A stretch of 64,000 bases of DNA from a plasmid. Position 1 is the first letter of the stretch; each line of letters begins with the position of its first letter. The position numbers were made by a program. Where the stretch lies: the sequence record NZ_CP029448.1; one strand, 5' to 3'. This document shows, piece after piece, positions 21,001-36,000 of the stretch.

Positions 21001-24000
21001 CCAGATACAAGGGGCTGCTGAAAAACGATAACCAACTGGCGATGTTATTCACCCTGGCCAACCTGTTTCGGGTGGACCAAATGATACGTCAGTGGGAGAG
21101 ATCTCAGTAAAAACCGGAAATAACGCCAGAAATGGTGGAAAAAATAGCCTAAATAGGCTGATTCGATGTGTTTGCGGGAAAAAAATCGGCCCAGATCCGC
21201 GAAATTTTAATCAGCGAGTCAGCTTGGGAAGAAATGACCTGCTTATTCGCACCTTCCCTAGCGCTCTGAGCGAACTGGCAAAACAGTTTTGGGAAAAACG
21301 AGGATAACGCTTTTCAGTATCTCGACAGGGATAACTTACTTTACCATCGGTATCCCTTTTAGCCGCACAAATTTTAGCCATGGCTTTTCAGGAAGTCAGG
21401 GCTATCAGAATGGCCTTAGAAAGCCTAGTCAAAGAGCTGTCACGAGAACACCGTTAGCTTAGCGTACGATTTTTTCCGAATTCTGCGGTTCCCCCTACTG
21501 GGTCAATGGCCCTCGCGCGGTCGATCAGGCTGGCTGGAAGAAAATTATCGGGGACAAACCGACCCTGATCATGCTCGATGAGTTGCCGCCCTACCTTGAA
21601 AACGCGAGCACTACTGTCATCGGCGGCGGTACGCTGGCTACCGTGAGCACCTACACACTCAGCTGCCTGATGAGCGCCGCTCTGGAGTTACCGCGTTGCT
21701 GCATTGTGATTGCCAACCTATCCGGCAGCTATGTGGCTCAGACCAAGGCAATTGCCGAAGCAATCTCTAACCTCCAGCAAGAAGCCAGTCGCCAAGCGAG
21801 CACCATCACCCCCGTGCAGTTGGCGGGTACCTGTTCATCCCTAGCGCCTCTCCGCCTTGATGCTGGCAGATTCAGTCTGGCCTCGCGGTTCGACCTACCG
21901 AAATATCGGCGGTTACATTGTCCCCAGAGCTTCAGACCCGGCTGTTACCGGCCACGCCTGTCTGGGTAGGGAACGAGTGGTGGAACAGTCGGTTCCGTCG
22001 GGCGTTAACCTGCGGAACAGAAACCCATGCGACTTTCAGGTCGCACTGCCGAAATAATACTGGTTTCCCTTCTTGGTCTGGTGCATTTCCGGGTCGCGCT
22101 TGCCGTCCTTGTTCTTGGTCGAACTGGGCGCATTGATCAGCGTTGCATCGACGATGGTGCCCTGGCGCAGCGACAGGCCGCGGTCGCCCAGAGCCATTGA
22201 TGACAGCGAGGATGCCGGCCGCCAGCTCGTGTTTCTCCAGCAAGCGGCGGAAGTTGAGAATGGTGGTTTCGTCGGGGATGCGCTCCAGGTTCAGCCCGGC
22301 AAACTGGCGCAGGATCGTGGTTTCGTACAGCGCTTCCTCCATCGCTGGATCGCTGTAGCCGAACCAGTTCTGCAGCAGATGCACACGCAGCATCGCCATC
22401 AACGGGTAGGCCGGACGGCCACCTTCACCCTTCGGATAATGTGGCTCGATCAAAGCAATCAAGCCCTTCCACGGCACCACCCGATCCATCTCGATCAGGA
22501 ACAACTCCTTGCGGGTTTGCTTGCGCTTGCCAGCGTACTCGGCGTCGGCGAAGGTCATCTGCTTCATCGGGAAACTCGGTGGGTGGAATCCGGGTATTTT
22601 GCCAAAATCTGGAAGTCTTCTTCAGAGTTTCCCTAGTGTGGGGTTTGAGGGCCAACGATGTAAAAAACCACGTTAATAGGTTAACCTATTGTTTTATTTT
22701 AATTATTAGGTGCTGCATTTACAGCTACTCCAATGATCATGGGGCTGATGGTCGATGGAACGCAATACCAAGTAGATTGATTGCATAAAGTTCCTTCAAT
22801 TCCGATCTGCCCTCCCGTTTTCACATCCTACTTCAGTTCAATTTTGTTGCCATTCCTTTACAACAGCTTCCCAATTGGCCGTTCTCTCGACCAATTTCCC
22901 ATCAGCATCCTTTCTTGTCCAAACATCCCAGAAATCAGGGTCATCAGAATGGGGTTGCTGCTCTTTCGTCAAATTTTTCATTTTAACTAAGACAGGAAGT
23001 TCAGATGCCCAGCCCATCAGTATTGCATGTTGAGATGGCAATGAAGGCAATTCACGGAGTAATCCTCGCAAATTGTCGGGTACCATTTTATGAACTTGCT
23101 CCTGATCTTTGTCATTGCTAATTCGATGCAGAAGAAAAGTATTACATTGAGATAAAACTGTAGGTGATAATTCTGATGGTCGTTGCGAAGAAATAACCAT
23201 ACCGAGACCAAATTTCCTGCCTTCTCGTGCAATTTTCTCAAATACTTGACAGCAAACAGCTGCGACATCCTGATTTTCACTGTCCTCACGATACCGTTTA
23301 ATAAATGTATGTGCTTCTTCAGCAACAAGTACCGTAGGTAAAGATTTGTTATATAGTCGTCTATAACGTTGCAATGATTCAAAAATAATTCTTGAAATGA
23401 CAGCTGTCACAAGATGAGTAATTTCAGTTGGTACTAAAGAAAGATCAATAATTGAAACGCAGCTATCACCATCACCATCTTTCCCAATATATGTTTCTAA
23501 CCAATTAGCCAAGTCAACTCTATGCTCTGAGTCATTGGTTATGGGTTTCATTCTTGTATCCGCAAGCATTGTGCGTATTCTAGCTACTAGATATTCAACA
23601 TATTGCTCGCTACCATTTTCTTGTGCTAACGCCTCTAAATAGGAGACTAAATTATTTCCGTCAAAAGGGACGGGGATATCCTCGTTTTTAGGAAGGAGTT
23701 CACACTCATCGCCTCCAAGGCTCTGAAATGAAGATAACACTCCATTTATGATGTTATCAACTGCGCTAACTTTAGCATTGTAATCTGGATATCTGCCTTC
23801 TCTTTGCCCACAAAAATCTTGAATAGAGATGATTAATTTATCTAGCTCAGGGCATGGTGTAGTTAATCTCGCTTTGTATTCTTCCAGACTCTGACGCCAA
23901 ATATTAATTTTAGCCAAAAGATTTTTGGCTCCAGGGAAATCATTAAGTGCCGCTGCTCCTTTAGATTTATCCGCTTTTAAAGAAACCAAAATTGTACCTA

Positions 24001-33000: not shown

Positions 33001-36000
33001 CGCTGTCGCGATGCTCAGGCGATGATGGCGTTCATGCCCGATCGGGTCGATGCAGACTTTCTTCAAGCCTGCCCTGAGCTGCGTGTAGTCGGCTGCGCGC
33101 TCAAGGGCTTCGACAATTTCGATGTGGACGCCTGTACTGCCCGCGGGGTCTGGCTGACCTTCGTGCCTGATCTGTTGACGGTCCCGACTGCCGAGCTGGC
33201 GATCGGACTGGCGGTGGGGCTGGGGCGGCATCTGCGGGCAGCAGATGCGTTCGTCCGCTCTGGCGAGTTCCAGGGCTGGCAACCACAGTTCTACGGCACG
33301 GGGCTGGATAACGCTACGGTCGGCATCCTTGGCATGGGCGCCATCGGACTGGCCATGGCTGATCGCTTGCAGGGATGGGGCGCGACCCTGCAGTACCACG
33401 AGGCGAAGGCTCTGGATACACAAACCGAGCAACGGCTCGGCCTGCGCCAGGTGGCGTGCAGCGAACTCTTCGCCAGCTCGGACTTCATCCTGCTGGCGCT
33501 TCCCTTGAATGCCGATACCCAGCATCTGGTCAACGCCGAGCTGCTTGCCCTCGTACGGCCGGGCGCTCTGCTTGTAAACCCCTGTCGTGGTTCGGTAGTG
33601 GATGAAGCCGCCGTGCTCGCGGCGCTTGAGCGAGGCCAGCTCGGCGGGTATGCGGCGGATGTATTCGAAATGGAAGACTGGGCTCGCGCGGACCGGCCGC
33701 GGCTGATCGATCCTGCGCTGCTCGCGCATCCGAATACGCTGTTCACTCCGCACATAGGGTCGGCAGTGCGCGCGGTGCGCCTGGAGATTGAACGTTGTGC
33801 AGCGCAGAACATCATCCAGGTATTGGCAGGTGCGCGCCCAATCAACGCTGCGAACCGTCTGCCCAAGGCCGAGCCTGCCGCATGTTGAATCCGGTCTGGC
33901 TGAAGAGCCTGGTAGCGATCGTTCAAACAGGCAGTTTTCAGAGCGCGGCGAGGGCGTTGGGGCTGGCCCAGCCGACGGTGTCGCAGCACTTGCAGAAGCT
34001 TGAAGAGCAGGTCGGCGTAACGCTGGTGCAGCGCAGTCGTAGCGGCTGCCAGCCTACCACACGGGCGCTGGCCTTCATGCCGCATGCGACCGCCTTGCTC
34101 GACATGCACGCCCGGGCGCTAGAAGCCCTGCATGGCAATCGTGAGCGCGTCGGGGCCAGCTCCAACATCGGCACCTACCTTCTCCAGCCATTCGTGCGCA
34201 ACTATCTGACGACCGCAAATGAGAGGGGCGAGGTGGATCTGCGCATCGCCGCCAACCCGGATGTGGCCGACCAGCTACTGGCGGGCCAGCTCGACGCCGC
34301 GATCATGGAATGGTGGCTACCTCACCCCGACTTCGAACACCGCCTCTGGCGGGTCGAGCCGCTGGTGCTTATCGTCAGCCCCGACCATGCGCTGGCTGAA
34401 GCAGGGTGCATAGAACGTGATCGTCTGGTGGACCTGCCGATGCTGGGAGGTGAACCGGGTAGCGGTACCGGACGGCTTCTGACCGAATACTTTGGCGAAC
34501 TGGGCGTGCCTCGCAGCGGTATGCAGCTAGGCAGCACCGAGGCAGTCAAACAAGCAGTGAGGGCGGGACTCGGCGTGTCGTTGGTGATGGCTTCCGCAGT
34601 ACAAGACGAAGTTCGCAGTGGCGCGCTGGTAGCTCTTCCCATCCCGGGGCTTGAAAAGCGTCTCCAACTGATCTGGCGCAAACCTCCCGGAAATCTGCAC
34701 CCGCCGGGATTTGTGCGGCACTTATTGGAGGAGGCAGATCTAGCTGGATAAGGTGATGGATGGTTGCGATCCAGCGCTTGGCTTGTCAGCCTAGGGAAAC
34801 TCTGAAAAAGACTTTCTGATTTGGCAAAATACCGCGACCCCACCCACCGAGTTTCCCGATGAAGCAGATGACCTTCGCCGACGCCGAGTACGCTGGCAAG
34901 CGCAAGCAAACCCGCAAGGAGTTGTTCCTGATCGAGATGGATCGGGTGGTGCCGTGGAAGGGCTTGATTGCTTTGATCGAGCCACATTATCCGAAGGGTG
35001 AAGGTGGCCGTCCGGCCTACCCGTTGATGGCGATGCTGCGTGTGCATCTGCTGCAGAACTGGTTCGGCTACAGCGATCCAGCGATGGAGGAAGCGCTGTA
35101 CGAAACCACGATCCTGCGCCAGTTTGCCGGGCTGAACCTGGAGCGCATCCCCGACGAAACCACCATTTGTTGGCGCTGATGGAAAATTGACCCACCCTGC
35201 CGATTGAAATTTGACCCAGGGCGGATTGCTGATTTTGTTACCAGCAACTGTGGATAAGTCTACCAGCGCAGCTGCTGTTGCCCCCACTCCTTCGCTAGCC
35301 CAGTTCAGTTGTTTAAGACCTGCCACACGCAGCCATGTAGCAGGCCGTCGTCGCCATGAAATCAGAACGGCTCATCGTATAAAATGTGGCAAAGAAAGGT
35401 GATGCCAGCGCCAGCGTTAACAGAACTAAGGCGAGCGGTATGAAGCGGTTGCCGGCGAAACTGCCATTGCCGATCGCCGTCATCGTGCGGAACATCTCAC
35501 TTAGCGCCAGGATCATCATAAAACTGCATAAAGCCATGTATAACATTAAAACCACTCCTTACTGCCCGCGTGCTAGGGTCGTATTTCCGGCTAATTCCAG
35601 ATAGTCCCGGCCCTTATCGTGGTGCATAGCCCTCTTCAGCCAGTGCTTTCATGATCTGGTTGATTCCATCCATCATCAGATATGCCTCAATATCTGACGT
35701 CGCCAGGCCGCGGCAGTCACTGAATCCCAGACGCTTAACCAGTTGCGCCAGAGCCTGCGCTTCTCTGTGTGTCAGCTGTATATTCACTTCAACGGGTTTT
35801 TCGTGGCGAATTTCATCTTTCATGGTCAGAGTCCTTTTTTGATGTTTCGTGAAATGTACCAGGCTTCTTTTGCCTGAGCTACAGCCCAGATCCAGACGAG
35901 AGTTGACACAATGCACAGCCCCGTCATGTTCCAGAAATGACCTGTCGTATATTCATGGCCATGAAGCAGGAGGCCGGCGCCGGCCGCCAGGCTCATGACC

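Follow-up and report, generated by a model that had tools for sequence, protein, structure and literature searches.

How did the genes for the oxidation of phosphite, in the set and order found in Pseudomonas stutzeri (Stutzerimonas) WM88, come to lie on a plasmid of Enterobacteriaceae, and would they be expected to work there? The DNA that raises the question, referred to below as the window, is a stretch of 64,000 nucleotides from the plasmid record NZ_CP029448.1. Its positions 30346-34751 very probably hold an intact assimilatory phosphite-oxidation operon of the WM88 type (ptxABCDE), which, by the sequence comparisons set out here, would have arrived as a decayed module derived from Pseudomonadaceae. 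An earlier reading of the same DNA, made without database searches (the sequence-only reading), had described this operon between two inverted and truncated insertion sequence (IS) copies, with a defence-bearing transposon of the Tn3 family nested between one IS end and ptxA; the features that it described are present where it had put them, or a few bases away.

Open reading frame (ORF) calling in the window gave five intact, co-directional and tightly packed ORFs in this interval, the same five genes in the same order as in WM88 (Table 1). An exact-sequence look-up assigned PtxD to the UniRef100 cluster represented by PTXD_STUST, under which Swiss-Prot lists the enzyme of P. stutzeri WM88 (UniProt O69054). 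The two proteins are identical in amino-acid sequence, and PtxD is thus the WM88-type enzyme that the sequence-only reading had recognised. Compared with the phosphite dehydrogenase chains in the PDB, the protein gives E = 4e-216. In the printed alignments, its differences from the crystallised chains all lie at positions that we take to be those of engineered thermostabilising substitutions. It holds K76, R237, E266 and H292, which are presumably catalytic, and E175/A176, presumably cofactor-determining, and has the Rossmann motif GxGxxG in the form GMGAIG at residues 152-157. The three transporter genes encode an ATPase, a binding protein and a permease together, each above the threshold of its NCBIfam model (PhnC, PhnD-type and PhnE families). 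PtxB is identical at 259/264 residues (98%) to the crystallised phosphite-binding PtxB 5O2J (E = 6.7e-171), from which it thus differs at 5/264, whereas the comparisons with HtxB and with Escherichia coli PhnD gave E = 5.7e-23 and E = 2.2e-19, respectively. Judged by these comparisons, the binding protein of the window is of the phosphite-specific PtxB type, not PhnD or HtxB. Exact-sequence look-ups showed that the PtxC sequence is common in Pseudomonadaceae and Klebsiella, and that the PtxE sequence occurs in Gammaproteobacteria; ptxC has a second possible start, a GTG at 32030. The earlier assignment of the transporter genes and of the LysR-type regulator is upheld by the NCBIfam scores and by the likeness of PtxB to 5O2J.

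Might PtxD nevertheless be a generic D-2-hydroxyacid dehydrogenase that happens to lie beside an ordinary phosphonate importer of the PhnCDE kind, with no phosphite oxidation at all? NCBIfam has no dedicated PtxD model, and PtxD matches there only generic 2-hydroxyacid dehydrogenase/glyoxylate reductase families (glyoxylate reductase families at the top, all of them under cut-off), while the models matched by the transporter carry phosphonate names. Against this, the PtxD sequence is that of a biochemically characterised and crystallised enzyme, and the close identity of PtxB to a crystallised phosphite-binding protein contrasts with its distance from E. coli PhnD. Sequence identity in our view refutes the generic interpretation, to which we attach practically no probability. 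The sequence-only reading had itself named a generic dehydrogenase of low identity as the outcome that would overturn its assignment; what was found is the sequence of the characterised enzyme.

By analogy with the WM88 proteins, for which the mechanism of phosphite uptake and oxidation is established, PtxB would bind periplasmic phosphite, PtxA and PtxC would import it at the expense of ATP, PtxD would use NAD+ as electron acceptor to oxidise it to phosphate, and PtxE would act as a LysR-type regulator. The copy considered here is set apart from the WM88 operon by being plasmid-borne, in Enterobacteriaceae, and flanked on both sides by remnants of IS1384. No htx (hypophosphite) operon was found in the portion of the window that was examined (about 14-49 kb). 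The guanine-plus-cytosine (GC) content of the ptx block is 0.611 (0.632 for ptxD), compared with a window mean of 0.515, which marks the block as foreign DNA; the value of about 65% given in the sequence-only reading was wrong.

Table 1. Features of the ptx region of the window and of the elements around it (positions within the window; bp, base pairs; aa, amino acids)
Feature	Position	Strand	Remarks
ptxA	30346-31173	+	ABC transporter ATPase; TIGR02315 327 bits, cut-off 266
ptxB	31170-32033	+	Periplasmic phosphite-binding protein; TIGR01098 289 bits, cut-off 112
ptxC	32042-32869	+	Permease; TIGR01097 294.8 bits, cut-off 216.7
ptxD	32878-33888	+	NAD-dependent phosphite dehydrogenase (EC 1.20.1.1), 336 aa
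ptxE	33882-34751	+	LysR-family regulator, 289 aa; LysR-family NCBIfam matches
ptxA upstream region	30071-30345	+	275 bp, conserved; includes right target duplication (30071-30075); presumed operon promoter
Left truncated IS1384	22047-22636	-	IS positions 1-587 (22047-22632) plus CTAG; inner end toward ptx
Right truncated IS1384	34791-35167	+	CTAG plus IS positions 1-373 (34795-35167); inner end toward ptx
ISPst3-like istB fragment (IS21 family)	35168-35378		211 bp, 100% match; cuts right IS1384 copy
ptx-accompanying stretch	21614-22046		433 bp; on enterobacterial plasmids, accompanies the ptx module
Tn3-family transposon	22640-30070		7,431 bp; GGGG...CCCC terminal inverted repeats
Left target duplication AGTGT	22635-22639		5 bp; right copy at 30071-30075
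herA (DUF87 ATPase)	22838-24904	-	Cargo; PADLOC HerA PDLC04098, 820 bits
SIR2-family gene	24901-26292	-	Cargo; PADLOC SIR2 PDLC04079, 517 bits; 4-nt overlap with herA
tnpR	26300-26869	-	Serine recombinase/resolvase; annotated as recombinase family protein on homologous plasmids
tnpA	27029-30037	+	Tn3-family transposase; NF033527 1122.7 bits, cut-off 500; reads toward ptxA
Genuine ISKpn26	20062-21257	+	Transposase 20130-21110, 326 aa; not the element bracketing ptx

What, then, are the sequences that bracket the operon? They include inverted repeats of 348 nt (22259-22606 and 34820-35167) that are 99% complementary, and the terminal 39 nt are 85% complementary. The fragments are 98-100% identical to the IS1384 that is annotated beside ptxE on Pseudomonas megaplasmids (100% in the case of the right copy and the IS1384 of P. 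putida pZXPA-20-602k), but share no more than about 67% identity with the ISKpn26 copy of the window, which aligns to a stretch of NZ_CP062917.1 annotated as an IS5-like ISKpn26 family transposase and has its right inverted repeat ending at 21257. The sequence-only reading was therefore correct in seeing inverted, truncated IS5-family copies on both sides of ptx, but not in calling them ISKpn26-like. Both copies keep the inner end with the start of the transposase gene (the left fragment encodes an N-terminal piece of an IS5 family transposase, according to NCBIfam) and have lost their outer parts, so that 587 and 373 of the 1,189 bp remain.

PtxD sequences at 98-100% identity were found in about 40 species-representative genomes, nearly all of them Stutzerimonas, Pseudomonas, Halopseudomonas and relatives. 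In Pseudomonas there is an intact unit of 9.08 kb, in which an IS1384-like variant (91% identical, with a group II intron inside) is followed by 117 bp, ptxABCDE and an intact IS1384. Its copies show 99.9% identity within differing flanks, in P. abietaniphila/P. gorinensis (one common site), Pseudomonas sp. ANT_H4 and a P. mandelii plasmid; the chromosome of Pseudomonas sp. MPB23 has two identical copies, with at least 17 kb of surrounding sequence in common. Beyond the outer IS ends the copies no longer resemble one another, and at three insertion sites the unit has CTAA on either side. As CTAA-like sites are targets of the IS, such flanks are as expected from duplication of the target, but they are weaker evidence of it than a non-consensus duplication would be. 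The group II intron (ltrA), noted at 4513-5781 of two excerpted loci, does not occur in the derivative in the window. No name for the IS1384-ptx composite transposon was found in the literature searches.

The ptx block of the window is 99.8% identical to that of the 9.08-kb unit (as represented on P. putida pZXPA-20-602k, the P. mandelii JR-1 plasmid and the P. gorinensis chromosome); in both, IS1384 occupies the same place beside ptxE, and the ptxA side bears an inverted IS. The unit differs from the window in having complete outer IS ends, CTAA on both sides, an intron-split left IS and the additional 117 bp; in the window, these 117 bp are missing by a deletion between two CTAG tetranucleotides, and the intron and the outer IS parts are missing too. 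The left IS copy of the window is a mosaic, its first ~50 nt being of the variant type and positions 105-587 of the IS1384 type. Hence the window has copies of the same IS on both sides of the cargo, as in a composite transposon, but neither complete outer IS ends, nor an intact transposase, nor a target duplication of the unit (without the outer IS ends, a CTAA or CTAG duplication around the module is not definable), and because both outer IS parts are lost the module is unable to transpose on its own. The proposal that the architecture is what is left of a composite transposon bounded by ISs and derived from Pseudomonas thus gains support from the intact, CTAA-flanked units in Pseudomonas: the complete composites that the sequence-only reading suggested looking for in databases do exist, with IS1384, not ISKpn26, as the flanking element. 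In several draft assemblies (among them Telmatospirillum and P. veronii), ptx is on contigs of about 5.1 kb whose two ends lie within the inverted IS copies, probably because assembly broke off at the repeats; the left IS arms of these contigs are intermediate mosaics, 95-98% identical to each type.

At what stage did the decay take place? A contig of the metagenome-assembled genome (MAG) UBA2609, binned as S. stutzeri, has the two truncation points of the window, the ISPst3 fragment at the same junction and 64 bp of the left flank, although its left IS copy is wholly of the variant type, unlike the mosaic of the window. With the same truncations present there, the decay most likely preceded transfer to an IncF plasmid. 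The 433-bp stretch to the left of the module is 99.8% identical in K. pneumoniae plasmids and present over all 433 bp in a Pantoea locus, and its end recurs in Pseudomonadaceae contigs (220 bp in a Pseudomonas sp. contig and the 64 bp of the S. stutzeri MAG). It may be imagined instead that ptx transposed into an IncF plasmid as an intact IS1384 composite, and that the IS copies were truncated only later, in Enterobacteriaceae. Intact composites do exist and have moved, and plasmids of this kind often have ISs truncated by subsequent insertions and deletions. The Stutzerimonas-binned contig, with its identical truncations, 211-bp ISPst3 fragment and bit of left flank, speaks against such a course, as does the longer left flank of the Pseudomonas sp. 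contig. Moreover, among the matches listed, the enterobacterial copies that cover the block have the same right truncated end; NZ_CP062917.1 and NZ_CP067068.1, examined in detail, have both truncated ends; and no CTAA or CTAG duplication is definable in the window. We consider direct transposition of an intact composite very unlikely.

We therefore favour arrival of an already decayed module, in four steps. The ptx genes would have been captured in Pseudomonadaceae between inverted copies of IS1384 and its 91% variant, giving the 9.08-kb composite transposon. A decayed derivative would then have arisen, through loss of the 117 bp by the left IS and of the outer IS parts, the right copy being cut by the ISPst3 fragment. 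This derivative would have become fixed on plasmids of the IncFIB(K)/IncFII type and spread through Klebsiella, Raoultella and relatives. Finally, in the lineage of the window alone, a Tn3-family transposon carrying SIR2 and herA genes would have entered 275 bp upstream of ptxA, leaving the operon and its upstream region intact.

The distribution of the module on plasmids is broad. Among the 72,556 plasmids of PLSDB, 863 match the 5.2-kb ptx block (609 of them over at least 80% of its length, and 737 at an identity of at least 99%), with Klebsiella (607/863) and Pseudomonas (162/863) contributing most. In complete E. coli genomes, ptx is present in 7/5,426, and is plasmid-borne every time. Compared with the ptx module on IncFIB(K)/IncFII plasmids of Klebsiella and Raoultella, the window has the same 5.2-kb block with both truncated IS ends, and differs in having the 7,431-bp transposon at the IS1384/ptx junction; among the matches listed, the block is 100% identical in plasmids of Raoultella, Citrobacter, Enterobacter and K. 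quasipneumoniae and 99.7% identical in those of K. pneumoniae. The ptx gene set is also on pBIC1a, a KPC plasmid of sequence type 258 (ST258) (PMC6286996), and the RefSeq/PGAP annotation already reads 'phosphonate dehydrogenase PtxD'. Contrary to the sequence-only reading, phosphite genes are thus far from unusual on a Klebsiella-type plasmid: databases already record and annotate the operon and its enzyme, on Klebsiella plasmids too, where they are common.

Two further occurrences differ more. PAGI-7 of P. aeruginosa, with a predicted ptxABCDE and mobility genes (PMC12024412), is a chromosomal island whereas the window is plasmid-borne, and the likeness is one of published description. The Acinetobacter plasmid pCl107 has ptxABCDE in the same gene order, read as an environmental acquisition, but is distant, with PtxD 53% identical to that of P. 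stutzeri (PMC10117892) and with other flanking IS elements.

The nested transposon is the one part of the arrangement that is peculiar to the window. It has all the parts of a Tn3-family unit transposon (transposase, resolvase, GGGG inverted repeats, which agree at 40 of the first 45 positions, and a 5-bp duplication), and its insertion point is right at the margin of the IS1384 end. Empty sites with a single AGTGT occur in Raoultella terrigena NZ_CP062917.1 (CCCTAGTGTGCGC) and in the IncFIB/IncFII plasmid NZ_CP067068.1 of Raoultella sp. XY-1; the latter is collinear with the window over about 25 kb (16536-22640 at 100% and 30067-49098 at 99.74%), the transposon being the sole difference. The duplication and the empty sites bear out the earlier view of a Tn3-family defence transposon inserted between the IS end and ptxA. 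By PADLOC profiles, its SIR2 and herA pair is a predicted SIR2-HerA anti-phage system; the NCBIfam anti-phage HerA families and SIR2_antiphage also match the window proteins, but under their cut-offs. No PLSDB plasmid has the IS1384/transposon/ptx junction of the window, while full-length copies of the 7,431-bp transposon, 100.0% identical, are present in many plasmids of Klebsiella, Enterobacter and Citrobacter; taken together, these observations indicate that an active element has hopped recently, and in this lineage only. The sole novelty specific to the window is therefore an ordinary Tn3-family insertion upstream of ptx. No name for the SIR2-HerA transposon was found in the literature searches.

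Another copy of this transposon, on NZ_CP062917.1 (8001-15518 of the excerpt), is 89% identical over the SIR2-HerA half (22640-26317) and 97.9% over the tnpR-tnpA half (26315-30070), and the change in identity falls close to the stop codon of tnpR, which suggests that related transposons have exchanged modules.

In the surroundings, NZ_CP062917.1 has, beside the left end of ISKpn26, about 1.7 kb (18604-20294 of the excerpt) with a VIT-family gene and a gene for an OB-fold lipoprotein; the window is without it (20057-20062). The loss, which is also seen in the Raoultella sp. XY-1 plasmid, fits an adjacent deletion mediated by ISKpn26. To the right of ptx, positions 35542-38445 (GC 60-65%) have 98-99% matches in plasmids of Klebsiella and Enterobacter, several of them of about 63.6 kb; its genes are for a large protein with the annotation of a RelB/DinJ-family antitoxin, for a helix-turn-helix regulator and for several hypothetical proteins, and in one record one of them bears the name 'tgtA5 cluster protein 2'.

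Would the operon be expressed in its enterobacterial host? From the sequence, the host would be predicted to grow with phosphite as its only source of phosphorus and to express the operon under phosphate limitation. Expression of ptx is reportedly Pho-controlled, with PtxE dispensable. The 275 bp upstream of ptxA belong to the unit that is conserved in every genomic context, from which we infer that the operon carries its own promoter, probably within these 275 bp. A K. pneumoniae ptxD allowed Corynebacterium glutamicum to grow on phosphite in engineering work (PMC8153679), and one K. pneumoniae PtxD was included in an alignment set (PMC10473253).

Several points weigh against so straightforward an interpretation. 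Even with up to three mismatches allowed, the 18-bp E. coli consensus for a Pho box was matched nowhere in the window (0 matches), and a scan of 29950-30400 gave no sigma-70 promoter, so that the regulation of ptx in the enterobacterial host is inferred. With tnpA reading toward ptxA and no terminator predicted between them (the same scan gave none), read-through into ptxA is possible, and the transposon or such read-through could alter ptx expression. The ptx genes of pBIC1a had very low read counts in E. coli without imipenem (PMC6286996). And, as regards the arrival of the module, the UBA2609 contig comes from a metagenome bin, whose host assignment could be wrong. A sequence picked out by eye as a weak Pho box candidate (TATTCATCGAAATGTCAT, about 30237-30254) has six mismatches and does not count as evidence.

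Could ptx, then, be a silent hitch-hiker in enterobacteria, kept by its linkage to successful plasmids, and uncoupled further from regulation by the transposon upstream? The low transcript counts and the lack of a recognisable Pho box or sigma-70 promoter would fit this, as would the open-access literature searched, which lists the ptx genes and does not address a phenotype in Klebsiella or a selecting force. The medium of the pBIC1a study was, we assume, phosphate-replete, and in that case low counts fit Pho control as well as they fit silence. On the other side, all five ORFs are intact, and the block is conserved at 99.7-100% among the matches listed, with the great majority of the PLSDB matches at high identity, as given above. 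The transposon, too, lies only 5 bp inside the conserved upstream edge and leaves 270 bp of native upstream sequence in place, and the WM88 genes are said to work in E. coli. We regard silent carriage as unlikely, and prefer to see in ptx a potentially functional operon.

There remains the question of how ptx was available for capture by IS1384. In Pseudomonadaceae without IS1384, a ptx unit of 4,669 bp, 99.7-99.9% identical, lies within unrelated flanks in eight genomes and about ten metagenome contexts, so that some 18 unrelated left-hand contexts (Pseudomonadaceae genomes plus metagenome contigs) could be compared for this 4.67-kb unit. Each left junction reads G-N-C-N-G-C-T-W-N TGGCCG, with the boundary between TGGCCG and CTAGTGTG; the 9-nt arm varies and the cassette hardly at all, and the arm is therefore probably derived from the target. 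Of the 15 loci whose downstream sequence is long enough, 10 have a 714-bp unit 45-53 bp past the 3' end that the ptx units share. With terminal inverted repeats of GTTAGCGAC, this unit occurs in either orientation and encodes a 209-aa tyrosine recombinase whose sole Pfam match is the Phage_integrase catalytic domain. Next after it comes a mirror-image half-site, CGGCCA-NNAGCNGCC, and complete palindromes such as GTCCGCTTCTGGCCGGAAGCGGAC are found nearby (in the excerpted loci, the positions concerned are about 5177-5191 and 9843-10590 and, in one further locus, 11900-12700).

The pattern fits insertion into the centre of degenerate, GGCC-centred palindromes of 24 bp that resemble repetitive extragenic palindromes (REPs). 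These palindromes also appear to bound neighbouring modules, which at the ptx cassette loci are heterogeneous and often defence-like (UvrD with DUF4041/T5orf172, a YobI ATPase, an SMC-like ATPase and PLD), and to attract insertions of the IS1182 family. Elements of that family (DUF772 plus DDE_Tnp_1_6) are inserted exactly at TGGCCG sites, at 1-258 and 9849-10106 of one locus and 10616-12073 of another, and in E. mendocina two inverted copies bracket the UvrD-helicase/DUF4041-T5orf172 pair together with ptx, in a second composite-like structure.

We suggest tentatively, as a possibility that we still think doubtful, that the 4.67-kb ptx unit is a cassette of a site-specific recombination system in the source organisms. 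An exact search of metagenome contigs found no junction in which CACTTATTGGCCG runs into CTAGTGTGCGC, as a circular or tandem form would give, and no description of such a system was found in the literature searched. Two known kinds of system were considered and rejected. The boundaries do not fit R''/R' (RYYYAAC/GTTRRRY), the core sites of integron attC, and the recombinase is shorter than an integron integrase should be and scores only 22.9 bits vs 265 with the integron integrase model; as for Xer/dif-type modules, the sites seen here are not known to resemble the dif of Pseudomonas. If the cassette interpretation were true, it would be at one such locus that IS1384 picked up ptx, and the plasmid module of the window would stem from there.

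As it stands, the insertion beside ptx shows that the SIR2-HerA transposon is currently active on these plasmids, and the identification of the flanking elements as IS1384 provides a documented route from a composite transposon of Pseudomonas, by way of a decayed module, to IncF plasmids. By this route, it seems, an intact phosphite operon has come to be kept on hundreds of mostly clinical Klebsiella plasmids, KPC plasmids included.

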